From an uncultured Hyphomicrobiales bacterium (lineage in GTDB: Bacteria > Bacteroidota > Ignavibacteria > Kapaibacteriales > UBA2268): a DNA stretch of 64,000 bases. A model generated the notes under the pieces. That model was not told the DNA's origin. It searched no databases and was given only the letters and a program-made list of their open reading frames with translations. Position numbers and translations under genes: made by a program. Shown here piece by piece: positions 1 through 29,449 of this stretch (positions within the stretch are counted from its first letter, which is position 1; each line of letters starts with the position of its first letter). Location: contig CAZDXB010000002.1 of assembly GCA_964509335.1 (NCBI GenBank), positions 58,253-122,252 on the forward strand, in the 5' to 3' direction.

Positions 1-2229
1 GCGAAAATCATACAAGTGCTTCGTTTGCCGAACAACTTGCTGAAAGTCCTCGTCGAAGGCTTGCTTCACGCTCGCGTCAAAAAAGCGAGGAAAAGGAAAG
101 AGTACCTGTCCGCCGAGTATCGAATAATTCCAGCTGATTACGACGAAAAAGACAAAGAGCTAAAAGCTCACGTAAGAAGAGTTTCCGAGCTGTTCACAAA
201 ATACGTCGATAGGAACAAAAATCTGCCGTCGGACTTGATTTCCGCTTTCGAGAATATCGACGACCCCGTGCGGAAGCTGTATTTCGCCGCGTCTAACATT
301 ACGCAAAAAGTTAACGTTAAGCAAAAAATCCTTAACGCAAAGAACTTTAAGCGGCAGTATTTTCAACTAGCGCAAATACTTACTTCCGAAGTCGAGATGC
401 TCAAGCTCGAAGAAGAAATCGACGGCAAAGTAAGCGACACGATACAGAAAACTCAGAAGAAATTTTATATTCAGGAGCAAATCCGAGCCCTTCAGAAAGA
501 GTTGGGAGAAGACGAAGAAGCGAGTCCGGAAATGGCGGCTCTGAAAAAGGCTATCAAGAAAGCGAAGATGCCTAAGCAAGCTCGCGAAAAAGCCGAGGAC
601 GAATTCAAAAAGCTCAAGAAAACGCCGCCGATGTCGCCGGAATACTCGGTTAACAGAACGTATATAGAATTTCTGACGCAACTGCCTTGGAAGGAAAAAA
701 CCGACGACAATCTCGACATCCAGCACGTTAAAAAAATACTCGACGACGACCACTACGACCTTGACAAACCAAAAGAGCGAATATTAGAATACATCGCCGT
801 TCTGAATTTAGTCGAAAATTTGAAACGACAAATACTATGCTTCGTCGGACCGCCGGGAGTCGGCAAAACCTCTCTCGCCCGCTCTATTGCCAGAGCATTA
901 GGCAGACGATTCGTCAGGTTCTCGCTAGGCGGCATTCGCGACGAAGCGGAAATACGCGGGCATCGGAGAACATACGTCGGCGCGCTTCCCGGCAAAATCA
1001 TCCAAGCGATGAAGCGAGCGGAAACTGTCAATCCGGTCATTCTGCTCGACGAAGTCGATAAAATGTCGATGGACTTCCGCGGCGACCCCTCGTCGGCGCT
1101 TCTCGAAGTCCTCGACCCCGAACAAAACGTAGCCTTCAACGACCACTACTTAGAAGTCGATTACGACCTCTCGAACGTTCTGTTCATAACGACGGCTAAC
1201 GTGCGATATAATATTCCCGCGCCCTTGCAAGACAGAATGGAAATAATCGAGCTTAACGGCTACTTAGAGCCGGACAAAATACAAATAGCAAAACGCCATA
1301 TTATACCGAAGATTACTGAAGAATTGGGACTCGGCGATTTCAACATTAACTTCTCGGACAATTCGCTCGTCAAAATCATACGCGATTACACCAGAGAAGC
1401 CGGCGTCAGAAATCTGGAAAGAGAAGTCTCGTCGGTTCTTAGAAAGTTAGCGAAGGAAATCGTCCAAGATTACGACAAGAAAAGAAGCAAAACTAACGGC
1501 AAGGGCGAAAGAGTTATACTAAGAGAAGACGAAAAATTTAAAGACAATCTGAAAAAGAAAAAATTCATTATAAGCGACAAAAGAGTAGAAAAATACCTGC
1601 GAGCGCCAAAATACAAAAGCAAAAAAGACAAGCTCGAAGATAAAATCGGAATAGCGACCGGACTCGCTTGGACGAGCGCGGGCGGCGACATTCTGCCCGT
1701 AGAAGTGGCTATAATGTCCGGCTCGGAAAAGCTGACGTTAACGGGCAAGCTCGGCGACGTGATGCAGGAATCCGCCAAAGCCGCTCTATCTTATATAAGA
1801 GCGAACGCTAAGGATTTGAATTTGCCGGAGAATTTCTACAAGAAAAAAGAAATACATGTTCACGCGCCGGAAGGAGCCATACCCAAAGACGGACCTTCCG
1901 CCGGAGTAACGATAGCTATGGCGCTAATTTCCGCGGCTTCGTCGAAGCCCGTTAAAGGCGACGTCGCTATGACCGGCGAATTAACACTTCGCGGGGACGT
2001 CCTGCCCGTCGGCGGTCTAGACGAAAAACTAGTCGCCGCGAAGCGTTTGGGCTACAAGAAAGTATTAATTCCCGAAGATAACCTAAAAGACGTGAAAGAC
2101 GTCAGAAAAGATGTGAAAGACGGGCTTGAAATAGTCGCTTTAAAAAAACTGGACGAAGCGATTCAGCATGTTTTCAGAAATAGCGCGAAACCGTCGTCAA
2201 AATCTAAAACCAAAAAGAAAACGAAATGA
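1..2229 (+). CDS. lon: ATP-dependent Lon protease (LonA type), 5'-truncated by window edge
   Basis: The frame is open from base 1, so the true start lies upstream. Walker A is GPPGVGKTS and Walker B is ILLDEVDK. The C-terminal Lon protease domain has PKDGPSAGV (catalytic Ser) and a downstream [12 protein letters not shown] Lys region. An N-terminal LAN/coiled-coil segment is present. Confidence 0.95.
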
Positions 2230-3119
2230 AAGATTATAGAAAATACTTACAACCTTCAACCGTAGCTAAGCTAGAAAATATCGAGTTAGTAGCGCGGCTC
2301 GTTGTTGAGGGATTTATAACGGGCTTGCACAGGTCGCCGTATCACGGCTTCAGCGTGGAATTCGCCGAGCATCGACCTTATAGAATCGGCGACGAAATAC
2401 GGCATATCGACTGGAAAGTTTACGGCAGGTCGGAAAAATTCTACGTAAAACAATTCGAGGAAGAGACGAATTTAAGAAGCATGATAGCCGTTGACTCTTC
2501 CGCTTCGATGCGTTTCGCCTCAGAAGGCAACATATCCAAATACGAATACGCATGCTATTTAGCGGCGGCTCTTTCGTATCTATTAATCAATCAGCGGGAC
2601 GCCGTCGGCTTGGCGCTATACGATTCCGAAGTTCGAACGATGATAAGACCCAGCTCGAGGAAATCCCACATCCGTGAAATACTGAAAATTCTGGACTCTA
2701 CCGTTCCCGCGAACGAAACGCAAACATCGCCCGCGTTGGATTTGCTGGCGGAGAAAATCAAAAGGCGCGGCTTGGTAGTAATTATTAGCGACTTTTTCGA
2801 CGACCCTCAACAAGTAGTAAAAGCGCTGCAACACTTTAGGCACAAGAAACACGAAGTATTAGTTTTTCAAATTCTCGACCCGAGAGAAATCGACTTCAAA
2901 TTCGGCAAAAGCGCCGTTTTCAAAGACATAGAAATTGGCGACAAAATGACCGCTCAACCTTACCAGCTACAGAAAGCTTACGCGGAAAAAATGCGTGAGT
3001 TCACGTTCAATTTGAAAAAGTCGTGCAGAAATCACAATATCGACTTTAACTTAATAAACACCGCCGACCCATTCGACAAAGCGATGAAAGAGTTTATCGC
3101 CAAAAGGAAGCGTATGTAA
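2226..3119 (+). CDS. DUF58 (vWA-like, MoxR-associated) family protein
   Basis: 297 aa. The block HRSPYHGFSVEFAEHRPYRIGDEIRHIDWKVYGRSEKFYVKQFEEE is typical of DUF58 proteins. The start overlaps the lon stop (ATGA). Confidence 0.75.
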   Translation: MKDYRKYLQPSTVAKLENIELVARLVVEGFITGLHRSPYHGFSVEFAEHRPYRIGDEIRHIDWKVYGRSEKFYVKQFEEETNLRSMIAVDSSASMRFASEGNISKYEYACYLAAALSYLLINQRDAVGLALYDSEVRTMIRPSSRKSHIREILKILDSTVPANETQTSPALDLLAEKIKRRGLVVIISDFFDDPQQVVKALQHFRHKKHEVLVFQILDPREIDFKFGKSAVFKDIEIGDKMTAQPYQLQKAYAEKMREFTFNLKKSCRNHNIDFNLINTADPFDKAMKEFIAKRKRM

Positions 3120-3120
3120 A

Positions 3121-4050
3121 ATGACTATTCGATACGTCGATTTATTCGCCGGAATAGGAGGCTTCAGAATTGCCGCCGAAAAAGCTTTCAAGGAGCTTAA
3201 CGTGAAAGGCGAATGCGTTTTTTCATGCGAAATAGATTCTCATTGCCAAAAAACATACGCCAAAAACTTCGGCGAAACGCCCTTCGGCGACGTCAAAGAA
3301 CTGGACGAAAACGAAGTCCCCGACTTTAATTTGCTATTCGCCGGCTTCCCTTGCCAATCGTTCAGCATAATCGGCAAAAAAAGAGGCTTCGGGGACGCCA
3401 GAGGCGCGCTTTTCTTCGACATCGCCCGAATCTTAAAAGCAAAAAAACCGGATGGCTTCGTCTTGGAAAACGTCCGCCAGCTTTCAACGCACGACAAAGG
3501 AAACACGCTGAAAAAAATTTTGGAAATACTGAAAGATTTGGGCTATACCGTTTACTACGAAATCCTGAACTCGCTGGATTACGGTTTGCCTCAAAAAAGA
3601 GAGCGAACCTATTTCGTCGGATTAAACAAACAGTTCGAATTCAATGCGCCACCCAAAAAGAGCAAATACAAGCCCTTATCGGAAATACTCGAAAATAAAG
3701 TCGAACCAAAATATTACGCGTCTGAAAAAATCAAAAAAAAGCGAAAAGAGAAGCATAAAAGCCGCTACAAACCAGCTATTTGGCACGAAAACAAATCGGG
3801 GCATATAAGCTCTTATCCGTATTCATGCGCGTTAAGAGCGAACGCTTCTTATAATTACTTATTAGTGGACGGCGAGCGAAGATTAACGCCGAGAGAAGCC
3901 CTAAGACTGCAGGGCTTCCCCGACTGGTTCGAAATCGTATCGCCTACTACTCAAGTCTCAAAGCAAACCGGAAACGCCGTCCCCGTTCACGTCGCCCACG
4001 CAATCCTAAAACAATTCCTGCCGGTATTTATTGAGAAAGGAATTAAGTGA
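3121..4050 (+). CDS. DNA (cytosine-5)-methyltransferase, orphan (no adjacent endonuclease)
   Basis: 309 aa with m5C-MTase motifs in canonical order: I FAGIGG, IV GFPCQSFS (catalytic Cys), VI ENV, VIII QKRER, IX REALRLQGFP, X GNAVPV. The ATG lies 1 nt after the DUF58 stop. Confidence 0.9.
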   Translation: MTIRYVDLFAGIGGFRIAAEKAFKELNVKGECVFSCEIDSHCQKTYAKNFGETPFGDVKELDENEVPDFNLLFAGFPCQSFSIIGKKRGFGDARGALFFDIARILKAKKPDGFVLENVRQLSTHDKGNTLKKILEILKDLGYTVYYEILNSLDYGLPQKRERTYFVGLNKQFEFNAPPKKSKYKPLSEILENKVEPKYYASEKIKKKRKEKHKSRYKPAIWHENKSGHISSYPYSCALRANASYNYLLVDGERRLTPREALRLQGFPDWFEIVSPTTQVSKQTGNAVPVHVAHAILKQFLPVFIEKGIK

Positions 4051-4091
4051 AATTATATGAACAATAAGTAAAGACAAACGACCCATCAGTA

Positions 4092-4138
4092 GTCATTCTC
4101 AGCTCGACTGAGAATCCAAAGAAAACGAATATTTTGGA
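4092..4138. repeat. REP-like palindromic element (GTCATTC-hairpin-GAATCCA type), copy 1
   Basis: The stem is ATTCTCAG (4095-4102) / CTGAGAAT (4108-4115) with a 5-nt loop. The ~47-nt unit aligns at roughly 80% identity with 18843-18890. Confidence 0.6.
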
Positions 4139-4323
4139 TTTTAAAATTAGATATGAAAAAACGCCGATACAATTGAATTTTAATCACGCTCAATTTTATG
4201 GAATACCAAACCGTTAAAATAAACCGAAGGTTGACATAACAACGCGATTGATAGGCGTTTCAAAAGAACGTCAACCTCGAGCAAATCTCTAGTAATGAAA
4301 CAATCCCAATATCATATCTCTTG

Positions 4324-4368
4324 TAGTAGCTCAAGCTTCTTATAGTAGCTCAAGCTTCCAGCTTGAGC
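4324..4368. repeat. Tandem 16-mer (TAGTAGCTCAAGCTTC x2, period 19) ending in a 9-bp hairpin
   Basis: Identical 16-mers lie at 4324-4339 and 4343-4358. GCTCAAGCT (4348-4356) pairs with AGCTTGAGC (4360-4368). Confidence 0.7.
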
Positions 4369-4548
4369 AAACAAAAATAAAACTCTTGAGTAAGTATAGA
4401 ATACGACATAACAAGCAAGCTAGGAATCTTTCTCTACCAATCCTCCCCCCGACAAATCTGAGTTTGGCGGAGAGGGTAAATCAGCGTTTGATATAACCGA
4501 CAAATTCGTTAAATTGGCGTAGTAAGTTAAATTTATCTGAAGATAGAT

Positions 4549-4956
4549 ATGTCGCTAAACGAAGATATTCGCTGGAAACAAAGATTTTCAAATTTTGAAA
4601 AGTCTTTTTGGCGACTAGAAAAATCGTTAAGTATCGAGAGACCGAGCGAGACCGAAAAAGCCGGCATAATTCAGTTTTTCGAAATAAATTTCGAGCTATC
4701 TTGGAAATTGATGAAAGACTACTTGGAAACGTTGGGATTCGACCTAAACAGCCCCCGCTCTTCTATTAAGCAAGCTTTTCAGTCGGAGATAATCAGCGAC
4801 GGTCATATTTGGCTTGAAGCGCTACAACATAGAAACAAAACTACTCATATCTATGACGACGAAACCGCCGATAAAATATTAAAGAGCATAAAAACCAAGT
4901 ATTTCCCCGCTATTAAAGAATTTTACGAATTTATGAAATCGAAAATAGAGAAATGA
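4549..4956 (+). CDS. HEPN-type nucleotidyltransferase substrate-binding protein (HI0074-like), toxin-antitoxin component
   Basis: 135 aa. It has an R-x4-H HEPN motif (HRNKTTH) near the C-terminus and overlaps the downstream MNT gene by 4 nt. Confidence 0.8.
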   Translation: MSLNEDIRWKQRFSNFEKSFWRLEKSLSIERPSETEKAGIIQFFEINFELSWKLMKDYLETLGFDLNSPRSSIKQAFQSEIISDGHIWLEALQHRNKTTHIYDDETADKILKSIKTKYFPAIKEFYEFMKSKIEK

Positions 4957-5264
4957 AATACGGGCTTACGAATAAAGACCTCGCACACATAACAAAAGCT
5001 CTGGCTCTCATACCTGAAATACGAAGCGGCGTTTTGTTTGGCTCAAGAGCTAAGGGCGACAACAAAAAAGGCTCGGACGTGGACTTAGCTATTAAAGGTG
5101 AAAAGCTAACTCAAGATTCCGCTTTAAAACTACAAGATATTCTCGAAGAGCAAATGCCGCTGCCTTACTTTTTCGACGTCGTTATATACGACGAAATTGA
5201 CAACAAAAACTTAAAAGAACACATCGACAGACGCGGCGAAGAAATTTACCGAAGAAAACTATGA
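4953..5264 (+). CDS. Minimal nucleotidyltransferase (MNT, HI0073-like), toxin-antitoxin component
   Basis: 103 aa. It has the Pol-beta NTase signature LFGSRAKGDNKKGSDVDLAI (G-S ... D-x-D) and is translationally coupled to the HEPN gene. Confidence 0.85.
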   Translation: MKYGLTNKDLAHITKALALIPEIRSGVLFGSRAKGDNKKGSDVDLAIKGEKLTQDSALKLQDILEEQMPLPYFFDVVIYDEIDNKNLKEHIDRRGEEIYRRKL

Positions 5265-5456
5265 GTTGCGAACAAATAACAGAGTAGCTAATCGGAAGCG
5301 ACGTCTCAATCCAATATCAAACATATCGCTATTCGCTAGACGAAGAGCGCAAAGACAACAGATGGACTCTGCAAGCGCCCCATCCCGACAAAACTCATTT
5401 CGAAATGGAGGAAGCCGGTAAGCCTAGCCGCTGGAATACGCTAAGAGCTTTAAGAA
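5261..5456 (+). pseudogene. 3'-terminal gene fragment (copy A), interrupted by TAG after 8 codons
   Basis: Nearly identical to the 70-aa ORF at 6690-6902, but CAG in copy B is TAG here (atgagttgcgaacaaataacagagTAG). There is no upstream body of the gene. Confidence 0.55.
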
Positions 5457-5619
5457 CGCTAAGGAATTTTAACATAAAGCGCTTTAAAACGGCGCGAGTC
5501 ATTTAGTTTTCAGCAGAATGATTATAAATTTAATTATCTTTTTCCTTTCTTATCTTAATTCTTATATTAGTTTATTAAACAAATACTTTTTCTTTTTAAT
5601 ATTAATTGGAGGTTACATT

Positions 5620-6273
5620 ATGATTAAAAATATTTCATTATGGATTTGCTTAATAGCTCTTACGGCGGCTTTTAGCCTAGCGTTCTTTTCTTGCAGTTCC
5701 GACGGCGGAACTGACCCGGACGATAACGACAACAACGGAGAATCTTGGGAGCCGTACCAGTTTGAACCCAATACGACATTTCACTATGATTTAACGACTG
5801 AAATCGAAGGCAAGGATTCGACTGGAGAACTCAGCGTTTATATTAAAAACCCAGCCGTAGAAATAACTTGGGTGTGGGACGGCGAGGAAGGCTCTTCTGA
5901 ATATGCGGTTGAAGATAATATTAAAGACAACTTTACCTTTGCGGCTTCAGGAACTCCTTTCCCCCATCTTTTACATAATTATACTTGGGCTTTGGGGTAC
6001 GGCCAAGGTAAAGATTTAAAAGTAGGCAATCATTGGAGCTGGTCGCATGCCGGCGTTTCGTATTCGTTTAATGTTACCGGCAAAGAAGAATACGCCGGTA
6101 TGAGCGGTTACGTAGTCGAAACAGAAATAACGGACTCGAACGAAGGAGAAGAATTTTTCTTTTTAGCTTGTATCAATCCAGACATAGCTTTACCTTTAAT
6201 GAACATTTGGGAAGGCAAAAGCGAACAAGATGAATTCTACTACAAGATGACATTAGTAAGCTATGAAAATTAA
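5620..6273 (+). CDS. Hypothetical lipoprotein
   Basis: I chose the internal ATG at 5620, preceded by GGAGG, rather than the track start at 5518. It has a signal peptide with a lipobox (LAFFSCSS). No family was recognised. Confidence 0.6.
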   Translation: MIKNISLWICLIALTAAFSLAFFSCSSDGGTDPDDNDNNGESWEPYQFEPNTTFHYDLTTEIEGKDSTGELSVYIKNPAVEITWVWDGEEGSSEYAVEDNIKDNFTFAASGTPFPHLLHNYTWALGYGQGKDLKVGNHWSWSHAGVSYSFNVTGKEEYAGMSGYVVETEITDSNEGEEFFFLACINPDIALPLMNIWEGKSEQDEFYYKMTLVSYEN

Positions 6274-6357
6274 ATATATTTTCTAGATTACCCGCTATTA
6301 ACGCTTTAATTTTAAGATTATATTTTTGGGAGCTTTCGTTCCTAAAAATTCGAATTT

Positions 6358-6399
6358 GGTAACGTAACGGACATCTTTAAAGATGTGCCTTACGTTACC
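6358..6399. repeat. 42-nt near-perfect palindrome
   Basis: GGTAACGTAACGGACATCTTTAAAGATGTGCCTTACGTTACC has 2 mismatches per arm, is centred on TTTAAA, and is not followed by a T-run. Confidence 0.7.
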
Positions 6400-6559
6400 T
6401 CTTTGCTTCATATGACGCGCATAATAACTTCAAATCAGCTAAGGCGATAGCCGCCGCTTCTATTATCGGCGCGTTACTGTATTATATTAAATCCTCGTTT
6501 GACATAACCGACAAATTCGTTAAATTGGCGTAGTAAGCTAAATTTATCTGAAGATAGAT

Positions 6560-6689
6560 ATGTCGCTAAACGAAGATATTCGCTGGAAACAAAGATTTTC
6601 AAATTTCGATAATTCTTTTCGGCGATTAGAACAATCGTTAAGTATCGAGAAACCCAAGACGCGGCGGAGATATCTACCGAAGAAAAACT
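6560..6689 (+). pseudogene. Decayed HEPN-MNT cassette (copy B) with ~590-bp internal deletion
   Basis: 6496-6652 matches 4485-4641, including the same start codon context. The sequence then jumps to the equivalent of ~5230-5260. The resulting 96-aa track ORF is an out-of-frame fusion. Confidence 0.8.
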
Positions 6690-6902
6690 ATGAGTTGCGA
6701 ACAAATAACAGAGCAGCTAATCGGAAGCGACGTCTCAATCCAATATCAAACATATCTCGATTCGCTAGACGAAGAGCGCAAAGACAACAGATGGACTCTG
6801 CAAGCGCCCCATCCCGACAAAACTCATTTCGAAATGGAGGAAGCCGGTAAGCCTAGCCGCTGGAATACGCTAAGAGCGTTAAGAGTCTTGAAACGCTTTT
6901 AA
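6690..6902 (+). pseudogene. 3'-terminal gene fragment (copy B), intact 70-codon ORF of unknown family
   Basis: It duplicates 5261-5456. It ends ...GKPSRWNTLRALRVLKRF, which looks like the C-terminus of a longer protein. No N-terminal body is present, and expression is uncertain. Confidence 0.4.
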
Positions 6903-6924
6903 AAATCAAGCGCGAAATATAATA

Positions 6925-8343
6925 TTATTTTAACGGCGGAAAATAAAACAACGTTATTCTGGGAATCGACAAAAACGAAATTGCCTCGATGGGCTCTTTG
7001 CTTTCGTCGTCTTTAATTATATTTATTTGGGAGCGTTCTAATTCAAAATTTATTCGCCACTCCCCGCTCAAAACAAAAAGTCCAAAATCGCTCGGGAAGT
7101 TTATGTAAAGTCCGAGCCCCCCAATTAGTCCAATCTGGTTTTCTTGGTCGGAATTATACGTATTAAACATGCCGGCGGCGCCGAAAGTTCCATAAAAATT
7201 CACTCTGGAATATGGATTTACAACCCAGTGAGTGCATATTTCTAAATTTCTGTAAATATTGTCCGTAAAGTCGTTATTCTCGGGAACCGCTTTTTTTCTT
7301 GAATAATTGAAAGCCGCCTCTATCAGCAATTCGTCAATTATTTGGTACGTTATCGCTCCGCCGTATGTAAAAAGTCCGTTATAAGAAATGTCATGTTCGC
7401 CGTCTTCTCTATGTTGCGTTTGCACAACGGTGTTTGTGCCTACGACAGGTCCGATACCGATAAATTTCTTATACGGATTGTAAAGCTCGTATTTAACGCT
7501 GTCTTCTTCGGCGTATTCATCGCCCTCGTAATCTTGAGCGAAAGCGACGCTTAAAGATAAAGCGAACGTTAACAAAATGTAAATCGACAAATTAAAAAAC
7601 GTCTTCGCCGTTTTGGTAGTCATTTTAATAACCTCGTCAATTGATTTTGATTTTATTTCAGCGATTTTTTTCGCTACGTATTCGACGTAAGCCGGTTCGT
7701 TTCTTTTGCCTCTGTTTGGAACCGGCGTCATAAAAGGCGAATCTGTCTCGAGCATTATTTTATTCAAAGGAGCTTTTTTAACTTCGCCGTCCAAATCCGT
7801 GTTCTTAAAAGTAATATTGCCCGTAAAAGATACCAAAAAGCCCAAATCCAAAACCTTTTTCAAAAATTCCTCGTCGCTGGAAAAGCAGTGCATAACTCCC
7901 TTAAGCGAATCGTCCCGCTCCTCCTCGATTATCTCTAAAATGTCCTCGTCGGCTTCCCTGTTATGTATTATCGCCGGCAAATCATTTTCCTTTGCTATTT
8001 GCAGTTGGCGTCTGAATACTTTTTTCTGAACGTCTTTCGGCGTAAAATCGTAATGATAATCCAAACCGATTTCGCCGACTGCTTTTACTTTTTCGCAACT
8101 TAAATTTTTTTCTATCGCGTCCAAAACCTCTTCGTTAAACTCCGACGCGTTGTGCGGATGAACCCCCATCGCGCAAAATAATCTATCGTCCGACTCCGCC
8201 AATTCGAGAACGCGACGATAATCCTTCGGCTCTACGGCGGGGATGATTACGCTCTCGACTCCCGCGTCGAAAGCCCTTTTCAGCGCTTCGTCCCTGTCCT
8301 CGTCGTAAGCGCCGAAATCAATATGAGCGTGAGTGTCTATCAT
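6925..8343 (-). CDS. TatD-family metal-dependent hydrolase continuing in frame into a signal-peptide/beta-barrel-like module
   Basis: aa 1-255 carry TatD motifs: HAHID, EIGLDYHYD, IHNREA, MHCFS, ETDSPFM. From Met241 (ATG at 7623-7621, with GAGGT 7 nt upstream) the sequence reads MTTKTAKTFFNLSIYILLTFALSLSVAFA-QD, followed by ~200 aa rich in Gly and aromatic residues in a beta-strand-like pattern. Confidence 0.85.
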   Translation of the reverse strand: MIDTHAHIDFGAYDEDRDEALKRAFDAGVESVIIPAVEPKDYRRVLELAESDDRLFCAMGVHPHNASEFNEEVLDAIEKNLSCEKVKAVGEIGLDYHYDFTPKDVQKKVFRRQLQIAKENDLPAIIHNREADEDILEIIEEERDDSLKGVMHCFSSDEEFLKKVLDLGFLVSFTGNITFKNTDLDGEVKKAPLNKIMLETDSPFMTPVPNRGKRNEPAYVEYVAKKIAEIKSKSIDEVIKMTTKTAKTFFNLSIYILLTFALSLSVAFAQDYEGDEYAEEDSVKYELYNPYKKFIGIGPVVGTNTVVQTQHREDGEHDISYNGLFTYGGAITYQIIDELLIEAAFNYSRKKAVPENNDFTDNIYRNLEICTHWVVNPYSRVNFYGTFGAAGMFNTYNSDQENQIGLIGGLGLYINFPSDFGLFVLSGEWRINFELERSQINIIKDDESKEPIEAISFLSIPRITLFYFPPLK

Positions 8344-16697: not shown

Positions 16698-17675
16698 GTG
16701 AAAGGCAAAATTTTAATATATGAAACTGAAGATAACCAAACCCAAGTTGAAGTTCGTTTGGAAGAGGAAACTATATGGCTTAATCAATATCAAATGGCAG
16801 CTTTATTTAATACGGATAGAACTTCTATCTTGCGTCATTTAAAGAATATCTACAAAAGTAAAGAACTATCGGAAGATTCAACTTGTGCAAAATCTGCACA
16901 AGTTCGAAACGAAGGCGACAGGCGAGTGGAACGGAATATTAAATACTATAATTTAGACGCTATAATATCCGTAGGCTACCGAGTAAATTCTAAAAGAGGA
17001 ACTCAGTTTAGGATTTGGGCTAACAAAGTTTTGAAAGAGTATCTCGTCGACGGATACGCCTTAAATAAAAAACTATTAAGAAAACAAACCGAAAAAGTGG
17101 AACGCTTAAATGAAGCTATTAAGACTATATCGTCGATTTCCTTATCTGAAGATATTGACGAGGAAAGTAAAAACGCGTTTTTTGCGCTTTTAGATAAATA
17201 CTCAACGGCTCTAAATCTTTTAGACAACTACGATAGCAAAAGAATAAAAAAAATAGAAACTCGAAGTAGCGAATCTAAAAGTCTAAGTTATGATGAAGTA
17301 AAAAAGATTATTAACGAAATGAAATTAAAATGGAAAAGCTCGAACCTTTTTGGTAAAGAAAAAGATGAATCTTTAAAGAGTTCAATTTCAGCGGCATTCC
17401 AAACATTTGACGGAAAAGATTTATATCCGACAATTGAAGAAAAAGCCGTAAATCTATTGTATTTCCTAGTAAAGAATCATTCCTTCGTAGATGGCAATAA
17501 AAGAATTGCCGCGTCAATCTTTTTATATTTTCTTAAAAAGAATAAACAACTCAACAATATACATTTAGACAATAATTTGTTAGTCGCTCTAACGCTACTA
17601 ATAGCAAATAGCGATCCATCCGAAAAAGAGCTTTTAGTTAATATTGCTACGATATTGCTGTTAAACAAAACATAA
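16698..17675 (+). CDS. RhuM-family N-terminal domain fused to Fic/Doc (death-on-curing type) domain
   Basis: 325 aa with a GTG start. The N-terminus (NQYQMAALFNTDRTSILRHLKNIY ... ISVGYRVNSKRGTQFRIWA) is RhuM-like. The C-terminus has a Doc-type motif, HSFVDGNKR (H-x-F-x-D-G-N-K-R). The gene is AT-rich with long AT-rich flanks. Confidence 0.8.
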   Translation: MKGKILIYETEDNQTQVEVRLEEETIWLNQYQMAALFNTDRTSILRHLKNIYKSKELSEDSTCAKSAQVRNEGDRRVERNIKYYNLDAIISVGYRVNSKRGTQFRIWANKVLKEYLVDGYALNKKLLRKQTEKVERLNEAIKTISSISLSEDIDEESKNAFFALLDKYSTALNLLDNYDSKRIKKIETRSSESKSLSYDEVKKIINEMKLKWKSSNLFGKEKDESLKSSISAAFQTFDGKDLYPTIEEKAVNLLYFLVKNHSFVDGNKRIAASIFLYFLKKNKQLNNIHLDNNLLVALTLLIANSDPSEKELLVNIATILLLNKT

Positions 17676-21254: not shown

Positions 21255-21899
21255 ATGAAAAAGTTAATCATAGTAATAGTTAGCTTGATAGTATCGCTTC
21301 TGTTAAACTTTGCCGCTAGCGGCGCGAAGGATAAGGGCTTTATGCAACAGGCTTTTGAATCGATGGAAGCCAACGAATACGAAACGGCGATAGTATTTTA
21401 CGACAAAGCCGTGGAAGCTAAGCCCGACTACGCGCCCGCTTACTACGGTCGCGGGTTGGCGAAAGCTCATTCCGACGACATAAGCGGTTCGATAGAGGAT
21501 TTGGAGAAAGCGACCGATTTAAAGTCCGACTATCATCAGGCTCACTACGCTTTAGGTTTGAGCTATATACAAAACGGCGATTACGAAAAAGCCGTGAAAT
21601 CTTTGTCGGAAGCCGTTTCCGTCGAGGAGAAAGCGGATTATTATTACGCCAGAGCCAACGCTTATAAATTAGCCGAGAATTACGACAAAGCCTTAGTGGA
21701 TTATTCAAACGCTATAGAAACAGACCAATACTACGGTATAGCGTATTACGGGCGCGGCGCTTTACATAAATTACAAGGTAGGGGCGACGCTTCGTTGCAG
21801 GATTTGGAAAAATATCTTGAAATGAGAGGCAATCAAGACGGTTTGGAAAAAGAAGTAAAAAGACTGATAAAGGAAATCAAAGAGGGAAGAGTGAATTAA
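21255..21899 (+). CDS. Secreted tetratricopeptide (TPR) repeat protein
   Basis: 214 aa with a signal peptide and repeated A-x3-Y-x-x-A-[IL]-x-x-x-P-x-Y-x-x-A-Y-Y-x-R-G units. Confidence 0.8.
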   Translation: MKKLIIVIVSLIVSLLLNFAASGAKDKGFMQQAFESMEANEYETAIVFYDKAVEAKPDYAPAYYGRGLAKAHSDDISGSIEDLEKATDLKSDYHQAHYALGLSYIQNGDYEKAVKSLSEAVSVEEKADYYYARANAYKLAENYDKALVDYSNAIETDQYYGIAYYGRGALHKLQGRGDASLQDLEKYLEMRGNQDGLEKEVKRLIKEIKEGRVN

Positions 21900-22007
21900 T
21901 TTCGTGAGTAGTTGTAGCTTGTAGTCAAGACGGACTTAGTTTTAAGAATTTTTGAAATCTTGGTTTGCCAATATTCTATTGTAAATGTTATAAGTTAGAG
22001 AAGAATA

Positions 22008-22847
22008 ATGCAAGACTTCGGGGGGAAGTGGACCAAAAATAAGATTGAAATTTTGGAAAAGTACGCTGGCGCTTATCTTCAAATAATGAAGAAACATCCT
22101 TATTGGAAAAAAATTTATTTCGACGGTTTCGCCGGTTCGGGACTTATTAAAAGAAGCGGCGAATCCGGATATAAAGACGATACAATTGGAGCGGCAAGAA
22201 GAATAATTGAAATAGACAACCCAATCTCGTTCGACGAATATCGTTTTGTTGAAAAAGACAAACAGAATTTCAACAAGCTAAAAAAGAATCTGAGCGGATT
22301 TTCGAAAACAAAAAATGTCGAATGTTTAAACTCGGATTGTAATGAAGAATTAAAAAGGCTAGCGGACGATTTAAAGCGGTCAAAATCAAAGTGCTTAGCT
22401 TATATAGACCCTTACGGGATGCAGTTAGAATGGGAAGCGATATCCAGATTGAAAGAATTAAATAATATTGATATTTGGTTGTTAATCCCCACTGGTATGG
22501 GTGTTAATAGGCTATTAAAAAGAGACGGGAACATAAATGATAGATGGTTAGAAAGACTCGAAAAAACGTTTGGATTAACATATCAAGAAATTAAGAGGTA
22601 TTTCTATGAAGAGAGAAAGGAAATAACCTTATTTGGCGAAGAAGATATTAAAACTAAAAGAGAAAACGCTATAAGAAGAGCGGCGGATTTATATATAGAA
22701 AGATTGAAAAGTGTTTTTAAATTCGTTTCAAATCCATATATTCTAACAAATACAAAAGGATATATTATGTATCATTTCCTTATGGCTTCAAATTATGATA
22801 AGGCTGAAAAAATTGCGAACGATATTATCAAAAAATACAATAGATAA
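22008..22847 (+). CDS. tcmP: Three-Cys-motif partner protein TcmP (methyltransferase-like)
   Basis: 279 aa. The N-terminus GGKWTKNKIEILEKYAGAYLQIM ... IYFDGFAGSG matches my memory of the TcmP family. D-x-F-x-G-x-G lies at aa 39-45, FVEKD at aa 80-84, and IDPYG at aa 133-137. Confidence 0.7.
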   Translation: MQDFGGKWTKNKIEILEKYAGAYLQIMKKHPYWKKIYFDGFAGSGLIKRSGESGYKDDTIGAARRIIEIDNPISFDEYRFVEKDKQNFNKLKKNLSGFSKTKNVECLNSDCNEELKRLADDLKRSKSKCLAYIDPYGMQLEWEAISRLKELNNIDIWLLIPTGMGVNRLLKRDGNINDRWLERLEKTFGLTYQEIKRYFYEERKEITLFGEEDIKTKRENAIRRAADLYIERLKSVFKFVSNPYILTNTKGYIMYHFLMASNYDKAEKIANDIIKKYNR

Positions 22848-22850
22848 GAA

Positions 22851-23570
22851 ATGGCTAAATCAAAAATAGAATGGACAGAAGTTACTTGGAATCCCTCAAC
22901 GGGTTGCTCGAAAATATCTGAGGGGTGTAAGTATTGTTACGCCGAAAAAATGGCGTTAAGGTTAAAAGCGATGGGTTTGAAGAAATATTGGAACGGTTTC
23001 AAATTGACTTGTCATAATAAAGACTTGGACGCCCCTTACGCTTGGAAGAAACCGCGAATAGTATTTGTAAACTCTATGAGCGATTTGTTTCACGAAGATA
23101 TGCCGCTAGAGTTTATTCAAAAAGTTTTTTCTGTAATGAATGATAATCCTCGCCACATATTCCAAGTCTTAACTAAAAGAGCTAACGTTTTAAGAGAGTA
23201 TTCGCCTCTTTTAAAGTGGTCGGAAAATATCTGGATGGGAGTAACGGTTGAGAATAACAATTATACCGATAGAATAGACGAATTGAGAAAGATTTCAGCG
23301 GCTATAAAATTCGTTTCATTTGAACCGCTGTTGGGACCAATTGAAGAACCGAATCTTCAAGGTATTGATTGGGTCATTGTAGGGGGAGAAAGCGGCCCTA
23401 AGTCTAGAACAATCAAAAAAGAATGGATTTGTCCCATAAAAGATTTATGTGAAAGTCTTAAAATACCATTCTTTTTCAAGCAGTGGGGCGGTAAAAATAA
23501 AAAAGCAAACGGCAATACCTTATCTGGAAAAAAGTTTTTAGAAACGCCTCAAGTATCACTAGAACTATAA
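22851..23570 (+). CDS. Phage Gp37/Gp68 (DUF5131) family three-Cys-motif protein
   Basis: 239 aa. It has IEWTEVTWNPSTGCSKISEGCKYCYA (C19-x6-C26-x2-C29), SMSDLFHE, WVIVGGESGP and PFFFKQWGG. It starts 3 nt after tcmP. Confidence 0.75.
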   Translation: MAKSKIEWTEVTWNPSTGCSKISEGCKYCYAEKMALRLKAMGLKKYWNGFKLTCHNKDLDAPYAWKKPRIVFVNSMSDLFHEDMPLEFIQKVFSVMNDNPRHIFQVLTKRANVLREYSPLLKWSENIWMGVTVENNNYTDRIDELRKISAAIKFVSFEPLLGPIEEPNLQGIDWVIVGGESGPKSRTIKKEWICPIKDLCESLKIPFFFKQWGGKNKKANGNTLSGKKFLETPQVSLEL

Positions 23571-23575
23571 ATAAT

Positions 23576-23610
23576 AACGCCGCCGAAAGAATCTTCCGGC
23601 GGCGTTTTTT
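23576..23610. terminator. Bidirectional rho-independent terminator
   Basis: A 10-bp GC-rich stem, AACGCCGCCG (23576-23585) / CGGCGGCGTT (23597-23606), is followed by T-run. It lies between convergent genes. Confidence 0.85.
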
Positions 23611-23613
23611 ATT

Positions 23614-24756
23614 TTACATCTTTCCGTTGCGTTTAAGTACGTCTCTTGCGATGATGCCTTTTTGGATTTCGTTGGTTCCTTCGAATATCTTATTAATTCT
23701 CCCGTCTCTATAGAATCTTTCGATGGGAAGTTCTTTTGAAAAGCCCATTCCGCCGTGAATTTGCATAGCGGTATCCGCTATTCTTTGTAGCGATTCCGAA
23801 GCGACGTATTTAACAATTGCGGCTTGTCTTCCTAGCATAGAACCGTCGTCGTAATCTATCGCGGTTCGGTAAATAATCGATTCGGCATTATAAATTTCGG
23901 TAGCCATATCGGCTAACATATTTTGAACGGATTGGAAATGAGCGATAGGTTGGTCGAATTGCTTGCGGTTTTTGGCGTATTCTACGGAAATTTCGAGCAA
24001 TTCCTTCATTCCTCCTAAACAAGCGGCTCCTAAACCGAGTCTGCCGGCGTCCAAAACTTTCATAGCGATTAAAAAGCCGCGTCCGTCCCTGCCGATTATA
24101 TTTTCTCCCGGAACTCTAACGTTGTCGAAAGTAATAGTCGAGGTTTCGCTGCCTTTTATTCCCATTTTCTTTTCGGGCGCGCCGTGAGAAAACCCGGGCA
24201 TATCCTTTTCCACTACGAAACCGGAAATTCCTTTTTTCGTTCGCGCGAAAACCGAAACGACGTCGGCGAACGGTCCGTTTGTAATCCACATTTTTTCGCC
24301 GTTCAAAATCCAATCGTCTCCGTCTTTTTCGGCTCGCGTTTGCAAATTAAAGGCGTCCGAGCCCGCTCCCTGTTCGGTTAAAGCGTAGGCGGCGTATTTT
24401 TCGCCCGAGTTGAGAATCGGAAGATATTTTTGCTTTAACTCTTCGCTGCCGCCGAGATATATCGCGTTTGCTCCAATGGAAACGTGAGCTCCTATAAAAG
24501 TGGCGGTTGAAAGACAAGCTCTCGATATTTCCTCTTGGATTATACAATAGCCAACTTCTCCAAAACCGCTGCCTCCGTATTCTTCCGGATACGGCGCTCC
24601 GAGCAATCCTAATTCGCCAATCTTTTTCTTTATTTCTCCCGGTATCTTTTCTTCATCGTCGATTTTAGCCGCTACGGGTTTTAATTCATTATTGACGAAA
24701 TCCCTTACCATATCTCGCAACATTTCTTGTTCTTCGGTAAAGCCGAACTTGAACAT
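23614..24756 (-). CDS. Acyl-CoA dehydrogenase
   Basis: 380 aa with typical ACAD blocks (YALTEQGAGSD, MWITNG, QIHGGMGF, IFEGTNEIQ). Confidence 0.9.
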   Translation of the reverse strand: MFKFGFTEEQEMLRDMVRDFVNNELKPVAAKIDDEEKIPGEIKKKIGELGLLGAPYPEEYGGSGFGEVGYCIIQEEISRACLSTATFIGAHVSIGANAIYLGGSEELKQKYLPILNSGEKYAAYALTEQGAGSDAFNLQTRAEKDGDDWILNGEKMWITNGPFADVVSVFARTKKGISGFVVEKDMPGFSHGAPEKKMGIKGSETSTITFDNVRVPGENIIGRDGRGFLIAMKVLDAGRLGLGAACLGGMKELLEISVEYAKNRKQFDQPIAHFQSVQNMLADMATEIYNAESIIYRTAIDYDDGSMLGRQAAIVKYVASESLQRIADTAMQIHGGMGFSKELPIERFYRDGRINKIFEGTNEIQKGIIARDVLKRNGKM

Positions 24757-26425: not shown

Positions 26426-26788
26426 TTAACCTTTCTTTAGTTCTTTAAAAGTAATAAAACCATTTCTATATAAGTTGTTTAAAAACTTGATAAGTCTATC
26501 CGTTACCGGACGAATTTCCTCGCCGAATTTTTCGTCTAGTTCCTCGGCAATTTCTTCAACTCTGCTCTCTCCGTCCATCAAGAGCCAAGTAGCGGCGCCT
26601 TTGTCGTCCAGATTTGCCCGTATGTGCGGGTTTTTCAGATATTTACTGAAATATTTTCTCGCGAATTTGTTGTTGAATTTCGGCACGAGAACGTCCACCA
26701 ACCCGTCGTCTTTGACCTTGTAATCGTGCAGTCTGATAGGCGTCAGCTTTAAGTAATTCAAGTCTTTCTTCTTTTTCCCGCCGAACAT
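26426..26788 (-). CDS. PqqD-family (peptide-chaperone-like) protein
   Basis: 120 aa. The C-terminal half (ATWLLMDGESRVEEIAEELDEKFGEEIRPVTDRLIKFLNNLYRNGFI) fits the PqqD pattern. No radical SAM partner lies nearby. Confidence 0.55.
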   Translation of the reverse strand: MFGGKKKKDLNYLKLTPIRLHDYKVKDDGLVDVLVPKFNNKFARKYFSKYLKNPHIRANLDDKGAATWLLMDGESRVEEIAEELDEKFGEEIRPVTDRLIKFLNNLYRNGFITFKELKKG

Positions 26789-27016: not shown

Positions 27017-28510
27017 ATGGAAAGGCAATTTAAAGAATTGATCGAATCGCTGATTAGGGCGACTCCCGGCTGGGCGGCTTATTTCGCCTCCGACGGCGAG
27101 TGGAAATATCCGCCTCATCTGGCGTTATTAGACAGATTGCTCGTTAAGATTTGCAGGAGGGAAATCGACAGGCTCGTCGTAAATATGCCGCCGCGTCACG
27201 GTAAATCGGAGCTTATATCAAAATATCTGCCTTTTTGGACATTGGGGAGCGCGCCTTCGACAAGGATAATCCTAACGAGCTACGGCGCTAAATTATCCGA
27301 AACTTTCGGATTGAAAGCGAGGGAGCTAATCAAAACCGACGGAGCGTATTTGTTCAATCGAAAAATCAATGCGGCGGAGCGGTCGGTCGCGAGATTCGGG
27401 CTACAAGACGAAAGCGGCGGGATGGATTGTTTAGGAGCCGGCGGGGCGATTACCGGCAAAGGCGCGGATTTACTATTAATAGACGACCCCATCAAAAACG
27501 ACGCCCAAGCTAACTCGCCGGTAATTCGCGAAAAATTGTGGGAGTGGTTTCTCTCTACCGCTCTCACAAGACTGGAACCGGGCGGCGCGGTAATAGTTAT
27601 AGCGACGCGCTGGAACGAAGACGATTTATGCGGCAGAATCGAGAAGAATTTCGACTGCGTCTATCTCGACAATTTCCGCTCGCTCGATTTTACGCTGGAA
27701 TCGGATGAATGGTTAATTACGAAACTGCCCGTTATCGCCGCGTCCGACGATATTAGCGGCAGGAAGGAAGGCGAAACGCTCTGGAAAGAAAGATTTAGCG
27801 TTTCGGATATATTGAAAAGAAAAGAAGCGTTAGGCTCGTATTGGTTTTCCGCTCTTTACCAACAAAGTCCCGCGCCTTTGGACGGCGGCATATTCAAAAG
27901 AAGTTTTTTCAAATATTTCGAGGAGGACGAGGAATTTTATTATTTAGTAACGGACGATTCCAAACGAACGGCGGCGAAATCCGATTGCCCGATTTACGCC
28001 GTTCTAGATTTGGCGGTAACGACTAAGGAGACGTCCGATTACACGGTTGCCTTAATTTTCGCGCTAACGCCAAGGCGAGACGCGTTGGTTCTTGAAGTAA
28101 TCCGCGAGCGATTCGAAGGCGCCGACCACGTTAAAGCTCTCGAGAATATATATAATCGCTGGAATCCGTCGCTGATAGGCATTGAGAGTTCGCAGTACCA
28201 ACTGTCGCTCGTGCAAAGCGCTTTGCGGCTCGGACTTCCGGCTAAAGAGCTGAAACCGGATAAGGACAAAGTATCTAGAGCGCTGCCTATGCAAGCGCGC
28301 TTGGAAGCGGGCAAAGTGTATTTTAAAAGGCGCGCGCATTGGCTCGACGCTTTCGAAAACGAACTGCTGAATTTTCCGAGAGGCGAACGCGACGACCAAG
28401 TTGACGCTTTCGCCTATATTTCGTATTTAATTCCCGAAGCGAGAGGCGTCGAACCGGTCGGCAATCAAATTAAGCGAAATAACAAGAGGAAAGTAACGAC
28501 GGGTTTTTGA
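27017..28510 (+). CDS. Phage terminase large subunit (TerL)-like protein, orphan
   Basis: 497 aa. Walker A is MPPRHGKSE, Walker B is DLLLIDDP, and the coupling motif is IATRWNEDD. The C-terminal RNaseH-like nuclease has acidic residues (AVLDLAV ... GERDDQVDAF). No small terminase, portal or capsid gene lies adjacent. Confidence 0.8.
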   Translation: MERQFKELIESLIRATPGWAAYFASDGEWKYPPHLALLDRLLVKICRREIDRLVVNMPPRHGKSELISKYLPFWTLGSAPSTRIILTSYGAKLSETFGLKARELIKTDGAYLFNRKINAAERSVARFGLQDESGGMDCLGAGGAITGKGADLLLIDDPIKNDAQANSPVIREKLWEWFLSTALTRLEPGGAVIVIATRWNEDDLCGRIEKNFDCVYLDNFRSLDFTLESDEWLITKLPVIAASDDISGRKEGETLWKERFSVSDILKRKEALGSYWFSALYQQSPAPLDGGIFKRSFFKYFEEDEEFYYLVTDDSKRTAAKSDCPIYAVLDLAVTTKETSDYTVALIFALTPRRDALVLEVIRERFEGADHVKALENIYNRWNPSLIGIESSQYQLSLVQSALRLGLPAKELKPDKDKVSRALPMQARLEAGKVYFKRRAHWLDAFENELLNFPRGERDDQVDAFAYISYLIPEARGVEPVGNQIKRNNKRKVTTGF

Positions 28511-28666: not shown

Positions 28667-29449
28667 ATGAAAATAGCGATTTCATATACGCCGAACCCGA
28701 TTAATATTAACGATTTAATATATCGAATTCTACGCGACAACAAAAATAAAATCGTAGGAGTCGTCGCTACAGAAGGCTCTAAAATCAAAAAACGCAAATT
28801 GATAGATAAAATCGACTACTATTTGGGTATGATGTTAATCATAGGTCCTTTCGCCGCTCTTAATAGCGTATTTAAAATAATGAAAGACAAAACCAAAAAA
28901 GACCGCAGAATAGAGAAATTCTGTAAAGCCAACGGCATAAAGCTTATCAAAGTGAAAACTATAAACGGCGAAACGGCGAAGAACTTCCTAAAAGAACTTA
29001 AACCGGACTTGATTTTCAACCAAGCTCACCACATAATCAAACGAGACGTCATAGATATTCCGCTAATCGGCGTTCTAAACATTCACGGCGGAACTTTGCC
29101 GAAATATCGCGGGGCGTTCACTTCCTTTTGGCAACTCTACAACGAGGAAGAACGCCGCGGAATCTGCTACCATCTCCTCGACGAAAAACTCGACAGCGGA
29201 CCGATAGTTTACCAAGAAGAAATCCCGATAAACAACAGCGACACCGTAAACAAACTCATTAAACAGAAATTCGACGTCGGAGTAAAACTCTTCTCGAAAG
29301 TAATAGACTTACTTAGCCGCGACGACTGGAAAGAGCGGCTAATCAAAAACGACGACGAAAACGCCGGCTACTATACTTTCCCCAACTTCAAGCAAGCGCT
29401 GCAATACCGGCTGCGCAGAATAAAATATTTTTCGAAGGTTAAATTTTAA
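28667..29449 (+). CDS. Formyltransferase-domain protein (Fmt/ArnA N-terminal-like)
   Basis: 260 aa with LNIHGGTLPKYRG (the H-x-x-x-LP-x-x-RG motif) and LDEKLDSGPI. No Fmt C-terminal tRNA-binding domain is evident. Confidence 0.7.
   Translation: MKIAISYTPNPININDLIYRILRDNKNKIVGVVATEGSKIKKRKLIDKIDYYLGMMLIIGPFAALNSVFKIMKDKTKKDRRIEKFCKANGIKLIKVKTINGETAKNFLKELKPDLIFNQAHHIIKRDVIDIPLIGVLNIHGGTLPKYRGAFTSFWQLYNEEERRGICYHLLDEKLDSGPIVYQEEIPINNSDTVNKLIKQKFDVGVKLFSKVIDLLSRDDWKERLIKNDDENAGYYTFPNFKQALQYRLRRIKYFSKVKF

Follow-up and report, generated by a model that had tools for sequence, protein, structure and literature searches.

In several lineages of Bacteroidota and Ignavibacteriota, a pair of genes encoding a TcmP protein (three-Cys-motif partner) and a DUF5131 protein (phage Gp37/Gp68) is repeatedly placed, as judged from operator-like sequences, under LexA control. 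This repeated and independent linkage to LexA-controlled SOS genes is the strongest clue to what the pair does. The copy from which the analysis starts lies in a 64,000-nucleotide stretch (the window) of contig CAZDXB010000002.1, from an uncultured bacterium that GTDB places in the Ignavibacteria (assembly GCA_964509335.1). A first-pass annotation, made by a model from the sequence alone, had singled out this copy as a candidate for an undescribed nucleic-acid modification or anti-phage system and had missed the SOS linkage in relatives. What is new here is the association of the pair with the LexA regulon, which we did not find in the literature searched; the pair itself is a catalogued but uncharacterised family pair. 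We tentatively favor the reading that TcmP and DUF5131 form a two-component enzyme acting on damaged DNA, in its repair or processing.

A conserved gene pair

A scan of one genome per species gave 445 relatives of the window's TcmP subfamily; the best 80 of these come mostly from Bacteroidota, Ignavibacteriota and Balneolales. TcmP and DUF5131 are obligatorily paired and always inherited together. In all 76 loci with enough downstream sequence, a DUF5131 gene comes directly after tcmP in the same orientation, the distance between them ranging from -47 to +7 nt, which bears out the earlier description of a recurrent gene pair. The pairwise divergences of the two proteins are also correlated (Mantel r = 0.39, a value reached by 0 of 999 permutations). 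The window copy sits on a long branch, its nearest genome copies being no more than 57-62% identical to it.

Other arrangements exist as well. The DUF5131 gene of Echinicola (L004) has a longer TcmP-like partner of the PADLOC PDC-M30 type, and the two genes are convergent in Gordonia phage Jablanski and in Synechococcus phages. On pKLC102 (L105) the order is reversed: a gene for an SNF2-type helicase is followed by DUF5131 and then by a 417-aa TcmP with a C-terminal GMT-like winged helix-turn-helix domain. Three long proteins (434, 437 and 552 aa) among 150 family representatives were considered as possible TcmP-DUF5131 fusions and proved not to be such fusions.

Linkage to LexA-controlled SOS genes

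When all open reading frames (ORFs) within 10 kb of the pair were clustered over 81 loci, the recurrent neighbors were SOS genes, not defence genes. SOS-type neighbors are found in 25 of the 81 loci. These loci are scattered over seven or more separate clades of the TcmP+DUF5131 tree and differ in their arrangement. The neighbors include a Y-family polymerase, UmuC/DinB (18 loci), an S24 peptidase, UmuD/LexA (16 loci), and a 378-aa SplB-like radical S-adenosylmethionine (SAM) protein (15 loci, always on the same strand as the pair). A LigT-like 2H phosphoesterase (13 loci), a DUF72 protein (7 loci), whose family has structural kinship with UV-damage endonuclease, and a Bacteroidetes-type LexA with helix-turn-helix and S24 domains (5 loci) also recur. 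The SplB-like gene lies directly upstream of tcmP, at a distance of 35-106 nt, in 14 of its 15 loci; in L032 it is about 3 kb upstream.

The operators of Bacteroidetes LexA are known from electrophoretic mobility shift assays: the protein binds CTAA-N5-TTAG or GGA-N5-TCC, and its regulon includes splB, umuDC, dinB and the COG1573-COG4277 pair (Sanchez-Osuna et al., PMC8565304). SplB (COG1533) and the radical SAM protein COG4277 are recognised members of the SOS regulon (PMC8565304). We tallied these boxes from the neighbor listing, with L079-L086 excluded. An exact CTAA-N5-TTAG stands in the short promoter heading the tcmP-DUF5131 array in at least 11 loci, and the arrays under it read [LigT]-splB-tcmP-DUF5131, S24-splB-tcmP-DUF5131 or dinB-tcmP-DUF5131; exact boxes of this kind total 37 in the 1.24 Mb of locus sequence. 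The second type of operator occurs in three loci, as four tandem GGA-N5-TCC boxes between a Bacteroidetes-type lexA and a (radical SAM)-DUF4130-tcmP-DUF5131 operon (Table 1). In Flagellimonas, radical SAM-HHH and DUF4130 genes precede tcmP-DUF5131, and in L050 DUF4130 is followed directly by the pair, with no COG4277-type radical SAM gene. Altogether the pair lies downstream of LexA boxes of a validated Bacteroidetes type in at least 14 loci.

Two Ignavibacteria share the order lexA-tcmP-DUF5131-DUF72-dinB, with no terminator-like site between the genes. Just after a TTGACA-17-TATGTT promoter upstream of lexA, both carry a conserved, perfect palindrome of 18-20 bp that overlaps the promoter region, (T)ACCATACA-N2-TGTATGGT(A), which is probably the LexA box of this Ignavibacteria lineage. 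Elsewhere a LexA box precedes dinB and, after 12 nt, tcmP (L057); in a Saprospiraceae genome a 74-aa ORF stands between a canonical lexA and tcmP, 10 nt after the former and 5 nt before the latter; and in L077 splB, tcmP and DUF5131 follow one another without an intervening terminator-like site. Among phages, phi1026b carries DUF5131 near a gene for an SOS-response-associated peptidase.

Two further neighbors may point to RNA. In L039, L059, L063-L065, L068, L071, L072, L074 and L077 the LexA-box operon (LigT-splB-tcmP-DUF5131) begins with one or two LigT-like genes, which lie about 1-3 kb ahead of tcmP, and genes for RtcB RNA ligase lie about 8 kb downstream in six loci. These neighbors raise the possibility that RNA ends or cyclic phosphates play a part.

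The two proteins

The first of the two genes (ORF1) encodes a full-length member of the TcmP family, as the first-pass annotation had recognised: residues 7-277 match positions 1-262 of the 263-position NCBIfam hidden Markov model (HMM) TIGR04474 at 153.3 bits (cutoff 53), and the PADLOC model PDC-M41A matches at E 3.7e-112. The motifs picked out earlier are where they were said to be (DGFAGSG at residues 39-45, FVEKD at 80-84 and IDPYG at 133-137), and ORF1 keeps all invariants of the family: D39-G-F-A-G-x-G45, F80-V-E82, D110-C-N112 and D134-P-x-G137. The proposal that the last of these is a DPPY-like motif IV, as in amino-methyltransferases, is weak because the family motif is DP[C/Y]G: D134, P135 and G137 are invariant, and position 136 is mostly Cys, with Tyr in the window copy. 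Since the residue after D-P is mostly Cys, the motif IV aromatic that marks exocyclic-amine methyltransferases, (D/N/S)PP(Y/F/W), is not conserved in TcmP. At the level of fold, the suggested SAM-methyltransferase character holds. The AlphaFold model (predicted local distance difference test, pLDDT, 82.6) shows a class I SAM-methyltransferase fold, to which residues ~180-279 add a C-terminal alpha/beta domain, and Foldseek gives a probability of 1.00 against EgtD, DUF519/RlmJ, Trm1 and KsgA, with AzeJ also among the nearest structures. ORF1 can be described as a SAM-methyltransferase-fold protein for which SAM binding or methyl transfer is predicted from motifs and modelled fold. The family is large (1,915 homologues in an indexed search, and 3,778 clusters at 50% identity in an exhaustive profile search), with 51-59% identity across phyla. 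Sequence and profile searches of the PDB with ORF1 and ORF2 gave nothing below E ~0.4.

The second gene (ORF2) likewise confirms its family assignment: residues 3-233 match positions 1-243 of the 243-position Pfam model PF07505 at 313 bits (gathering threshold 28.9), and PADLOC PDC-M41B matches at E 8e-117, with PDC-M30B matched equally well. The motifs quoted for it earlier (C19/C26/C29, SMSDLFHE, VGGESGP and FFFKQWGG) are all present. All 40 aligned DUF5131 homologues keep C19, C26 and C29, C200 is a fourth invariant Cys, and the window copy keeps all the other invariants as well (SMSD-F-H, TKR, GGESG and FFFKQWGG). As a query, DUF5131 matched more than 8,000 clusters at 90% identity, the best 120 of them at 60-71% identity.

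Several lines of comparison place DUF5131 near radical SAM proteins. Its AlphaFold model (pLDDT 88.4) is a partial alpha/beta (TIM) barrel, for which Foldseek's best template-modelling (TM) scores are 0.46-0.49 to spore photoproduct lyase (a weak match, E 0.03-0.05) and 0.37-0.39 to MiaB. Aligned by hhalign with SplB-like radical SAM proteins (probability 42%, E 2.7e-4), it pairs WNPSTGC-x6-C-x2-CYAE with their MNPYAGC-x3-C-x2-CYAR; because the Cys loops align, CX6CX2C can be read as the canonical cluster loop with a three-residue insertion. RadicalSAM.org lists DUF5131 as a subgroup of megacluster 5 (5-2), beside MJ0683-like proteins and spore photoproduct lyase. Residues 24-211 of ORF2 also match TIGR04471, "radical SAM mobile pair protein A", at 97.6 bits (E 6.8e-28), under the cutoff of 355. 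Because this score is below cutoff, PF04055 gives no match and the fold matches are weak, we treat DUF5131 as a divergent relative of the SplB/spore photoproduct lyase-type radical SAM superfamily, short of a proven radical SAM enzyme. The first-pass annotation had suggested a Cys-cluster, possibly radical-type enzyme: a relation to radical SAM proteins is probable (hhalign, TM scores and megacluster 5), and the canonical CX3CX2C motif and a PF04055 match are lacking.

The window cassette and its setting

In the window the pair is intact and forms, as judged from its layout, a single co-transcribed operon with its own terminator (Table 1). As first annotated, the two genes are on the same strand, 3 nt apart, and wedged between a TPR gene and a convergent acyl-CoA dehydrogenase gene. 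The strong hairpin terminator seen earlier also proves real, with a 14-bp stem that includes 9 G-C pairs; TTTTTTATTTT follows the hairpin on the + strand, and the - strand side has a weaker A/T tail. Rfam matches at the terminator are stem-loop look-alikes, far under the gathering scores. What had been judged by eye to be AT-rich is so by measurement: GC is 0.330 for ORF1 and 0.369 for ORF2 (0.329 and 0.358 at third codon positions, GC3), against a window gene mean of 0.435 +/- 0.039 (GC3 0.49 +/- 0.06). The two are the second and third lowest in GC among 44 window genes, and the flanking genes are ordinary (TPR gene 0.437, acyl-CoA dehydrogenase gene 0.450).

Table 1. Coordinates of the features discussed, in the window and in related loci
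Feature	Sequence	Positions	Strand	Description
tcmP (ORF1)	window	22008-22847	+	279 aa; three-Cys-motif partner; class I SAM-methyltransferase fold (model); PADLOC PDC-M41A
DUF5131 / Gp37-Gp68 (ORF2)	window	22851-23570	+	239 aa; C19-x6-C26-x2-C29; PADLOC PDC-M41B/M30B
Upstream intergenic region	window	21900-22007	+	108 nt; presumed cassette promoter
Intrinsic terminator	window	23576-23616	both	hairpin 23576-23606 and T-run; common to the cassette and the convergent acyl-CoA dehydrogenase gene
TPR gene	window	21255-21899		upstream neighbor of tcmP
Acyl-CoA dehydrogenase gene	window	23614-24756		convergent, downstream neighbor of DUF5131
RhuM + Fic/DOC gene	window	16698-17675	+	325 aa; PADLOC PDC-S23
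PqqD-like gene	window	26426-26788		
Terminase-large-subunit-like gene	window	27017-28510	+	Terminase_6N + Terminase_6C
Formyl-transferase gene	window	28667-29449		
GGA-N5-TCC box cluster	L028	7587-7661		
GGA-N5-TCC box cluster	L040	7653-7727		
GGA-N5-TCC box cluster	L050	8925-8999		
Ignavibacteria palindrome	L005	9229-9248		upstream of lexA
Ignavibacteria palindrome	L007	6950-6969		upstream of lexA
Toxin-antitoxin pairs	L090/L091	7283-7757, 11626-12305		BrnT/CopG and HEPN/nucleotidyltransferase
Helicase-DUF5131-TcmP array	L105 (pKLC102)	1020-7069		reverse gene order

Acquired horizontally, the window copy stands alone as a cassette at a variable spot in an Ignavibacteria/Kapabacteria-type genome; as a low-GC insertion it agrees with the accessory islet described earlier. 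Its neighbors encode a type IX secretion system (T9SS) cargo protein, the TPR protein, the acyl-CoA dehydrogenase, an M20 peptidase and a PqqD-like protein. Judged by the acyl-CoA dehydrogenase, the host is of the Ignavibacteria/Kapabacteria/Chlorobi type, and even the nearest relatives of this protein share only about 80-81% identity with it. In the three nearest relatives, the gap from the dehydrogenase gene to the T9SS-cargo gene is filled by a BrnT/CopG toxin-antitoxin pair or an RsmD-like gene, or contains no gene. Because the content of the gap differs among these three, the insertion site is best described as a variable spot; a strict empty site was sought in them, and such a variable spot was found instead of a clean empty site. 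The BrnT/CopG and HEPN/nucleotidyltransferase toxin-antitoxin pairs that the corresponding spot carries around T9SS-cargo genes in the close relatives L090/L091 mark it as a variable region. At the window locus, searches for att-like or insertion-sequence-like repeats bracketing the islet, for tRNA genes and for Rfam families above threshold found none. Nor did the locus show contiguous structural, integration or regulatory phage genes, and the ordinary prophage remnant that the first-pass annotation had allowed for does not describe it.

Two other genes of the window deserve mention. The RhuM + Fic/DOC gene, 4.3 kb upstream of the pair, matches PADLOC PDC-S23 (E 6e-123) and has the lowest GC in the window (0.32; GC3 0.28), which makes it a second accessory candidate-defence gene. 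A lone terminase-like gene of normal GC, 3.4 kb from the pair, lies between the PqqD-like and formyl-transferase genes, and no other phage genes were seen nearby.

Motif searches upstream of tcmP gave little. The Ignavibacteria palindrome has only two matches in the window, each with two mismatches and at chance level. A CTTA-N4-TAAG palindrome at -73 recurs in a single other locus (L014, at -72) and was treated as chance. A de novo dyad-motif search of 49 tcmP upstream regions returned A/T-rich palindromes only, at the level of shuffled sequence.

Repair, defence or RNA modification

We propose, tentatively, that the pair acts on damaged DNA as an accessory arm of the SOS response. DUF5131 would hold a [4Fe-4S] cluster on C19, C26 and C29 and cleave SAM to a 5'-deoxyadenosyl radical. 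TcmP would bind SAM and the nucleic-acid substrate and may flip out or methylate a base; alternatively, it could methylate the invariant C200 of DUF5131 in an RlmN-like relay. Together the two would repair or chemically process damaged DNA, and service in the SOS response would be the reason why many Bacteroidota and Ignavibacteriota keep the pair under LexA, beside translesion polymerases and radical SAM repair candidates. Each element of this scheme (radical chemistry of DUF5131 on nucleic acid, handling of substrate and SAM by TcmP, damaged DNA as the substrate) is inferred.

A number of observations weigh against this proposal. ORF2 has neither of the canonical radical SAM marks looked for, CX3CX2C or a PF04055 match, and its fold matches are statistically weak in addition to the non-canonical Cys spacing. 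The window copy has no SOS neighbor at all, its upstream intergenic region holds no CTAA-N5-TTAG, GGA-N5-TCC or Ignavibacteria-type ACCATACA-N2-TGTATGGT, and known LexA motifs are not enriched upstream of stand-alone cassettes. Of the 81 loci, 56 are without SOS genes, and their neighbors include numerous defence genes (Septu, PARIS, AbiL, restriction-modification, BREX, MADS and others). Cassettes of umuDC are frequent cargo of mobile elements, and for this reason the SOS linkage may partly reflect common mobility. The LigT-like and RtcB genes in some clusters keep RNA possible as the substrate. Finally, the literature searched holds no demonstrated biochemical function for TcmP or DUF5131, as the first-pass annotation had stated: DUF5131 appears once, as a radical SAM subgroup, TcmP in annotation tables only, and PDC-M41 is absent.

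A more specific version of the proposal is possible, and we hold it with less conviction. The pair could represent a previously unrecognised class of SOS-inducible enzyme for DNA repair or processing, in which a spore-photoproduct-lyase-like radical SAM protein that depends on a methyltransferase-fold partner reverses or converts a DNA lesion. Such a cassette would have reached thousands of bacteria, plasmids and temperate phages by horizontal transfer, and its travel in variable islands would have led to its being mistaken for a defence candidate. Islands of this kind gather both repair and defence cargo.

The main rival is anti-phage defence: on infection, the radical-SAM-like enzyme and its SAM-binding partner would either alter nucleic acid or produce a nucleotide derivative that is toxic or terminates chains, and LexA control would arm the system upon prophage induction in some genomes. 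We consider this the less likely of the two readings. Several features of the genomic context speak for it. The window pair, adjacent A and B components with E values of about 1e-112 to 1e-117 to the PDC-M41A/B models, already stands in PADLOC as a defence candidate and so is not the undescribed one that it was first taken to be; it is also a low-GC islet within 4.3 kb of the RhuM-Fic gene. Protection against phage is only a candidate function of PDC-M41, as PADLOC's 145 PDC systems were chosen for their embedding in BREX, DISARM or type I restriction-modification loci, and their authors themselves describe them as untested. In Niabella (L006) the pair is surrounded by a defence island with an OLD-TOPRIM ATPase and UvrD helicase, SRA-HNH, NERD and SduA_C, and in the remaining loci the three nearest genes on each side match PADLOC PtuA, AriA, AbiLi, dCTPase, mad2/3 and PglX, as well as type I/II/IIG restriction-modification, PDC-M01, PDC-M62 and PDC-S05. 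TcmP (SMa2243) adjoins the Hna defence helicase on S. meliloti pSymA (L103), where both are regulated by NolR, and it accompanies the SNF2 helicase on pKLC102. The PDC-M30-type copy of Echinicola stands among toxin-antitoxin and transposase genes, and the pair of phage Jablanski between integrase/toxin-antitoxin genes and the immunity repressor. Against defence, variable islands gather every kind of accessory cargo, and the pair has no sensor domain and no effector of nuclease, membrane or NADase type. Its conservation across phyla is unusually high (DUF5131 60-71%, TcmP 51-59%), and the fact that seven or more lineages have it in one operon with translesion polymerases, SplB and LexA fits repair better than immunity. 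Repair and defence need not fully exclude each other, since there are defence systems under SOS control.

Phages themselves carry one of the two genes more than the other. DUF5131 turns up in 178 of 50,697 phage records and in 433 of 72,556 plasmids, and where the phage is temperate, integrase and immunity genes are close by; relatives of TcmP were limited to 2 phage records and 8 IMG/VR contigs, none of them above 30% identity. The phage ancestry proposed for the pair therefore stands in a broad sense for DUF5131 and falls for TcmP. In PHROGs, ORF2 matches only a family of unassigned function and ORF1 has no match. That the window copy does nothing in this genome at present, as inert cargo or the decaying remains of a prophage, is very improbable. 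Its composition is atypical for the window, the lone terminase-like gene is not far away and DUF5131 does occur in temperate phages; on the other side, both ORFs are full length against the HMMs and keep all family-invariant residues, the spacing is tight, the terminator is dedicated, and identical proteins were recovered on the same contig from three sequencing runs. Housekeeping genes also separate the pair from the terminase-like gene, and no phage structural genes are adjacent.

RNA modification is a further alternative, and an improbable one. TcmP would be an N-methyltransferase of the Trm1/RlmJ/RsmD type acting on tRNA or rRNA, and DUF5131 would act on that nucleotide or its neighbor by radical chemistry, in the manner of MiaB or RlmN. 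The LigT-like and RtcB genes are in keeping with this, as are the presence of MiaB among the fold matches of DUF5131, the nearness of TcmP to the folds of Trm1 (TM 0.47), RlmJ/DUF519 (0.42-0.45), KsgA and MnmM, and its weak HMM matches to RsmD/Cons_hypoth95. The fold matches of TcmP are generic for class I methyltransferases, however, and no association with translation genes was seen. A patchy, mobile distribution and a low-GC islet in the window do not suit a housekeeping modification, and the SOS and DNA-polymerase context points to DNA.

Significance

The association with the LexA regulon matters because it makes the function of the pair testable. TcmP and DUF5131 belong to very large families without known chemistry, with 3,778 and more than 8,000 clusters, respectively. 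If the SOS link reflects function, a radical-SAM-based activity would be added to the bacterial DNA-damage response outside spore formers, and there would be a handle on the uncharacterised neighbors: the SplB-like proteins, radical SAM-DUF4130 and DUF72. Should the pair prove to be a defence system, it would be of an unusual type, effector-free and built on radical chemistry. Under either reading, the loci with LexA boxes open the question to direct test. The window copy itself adds little beyond one further stand-alone instance.

Comparison with known systems

The closest known system is the catalogued TcmP-DUF5131 pair itself, PDC-M41. The window copy resembles its other copies in full-length HMM matches, gene order, strand and near-zero spacing; it differs in standing alone, without SOS or defence neighbors, and nothing structural sets it apart. 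PDC-M30 shares its B component with the window pair, and the N-terminal, SAM-binding half of its A component is related to TcmP. PDC-M30A, at about 370 aa, is some 90 aa longer, and ORF1 matches it over residues 8-169 only (E ~6e-11). The Echinicola copy is an example of this type and, more distantly, so is gp43 of Gordonia phage Jablanski.

On the side of TcmP, the methyltransferases Trm1, RlmJ (DUF519) and RsmD have in common with it the class I Rossmann fold and the order of motif I, acidic motif II and a DPxG-type motif IV; TcmP differs from them in having Cys in place of the motif IV aromatic in most members and in its extra C-terminal domain. On the side of DUF5131, the SplB-like proteins (COG1533, PA0069/MJ0683-like) and spore photoproduct lyase share the NPxxGC...C-x2-CYA loop and an LTK[RN] strand. 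Compared with the SplB-like proteins, DUF5131 is about 140 aa shorter, has CX6CX2C and not CX3CX2C, and always needs a TcmP-type partner.

Two other systems resemble the pair in their two-component design. The "radical SAM mobile pair" A/B (TIGR04471/TIGR04470) is, like TcmP-DUF5131, a two-gene mobile cassette, found for example on a Bacteroides plasmid (L104), where a RhuM gene lies near it; the partner there is a second radical SAM protein, whereas in TcmP-DUF5131 it is a methyltransferase-fold protein. The SOS-regulated radical SAM protein (COG4277, HHH) and DUF4130 likewise form a LexA-regulated module of a radical SAM protein and an accessory protein, with predicted action on nucleic acid. 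These families are unrelated to TcmP and DUF5131 beyond the radical SAM superfamily link, and in Flagellimonas the two pairs share an operon.

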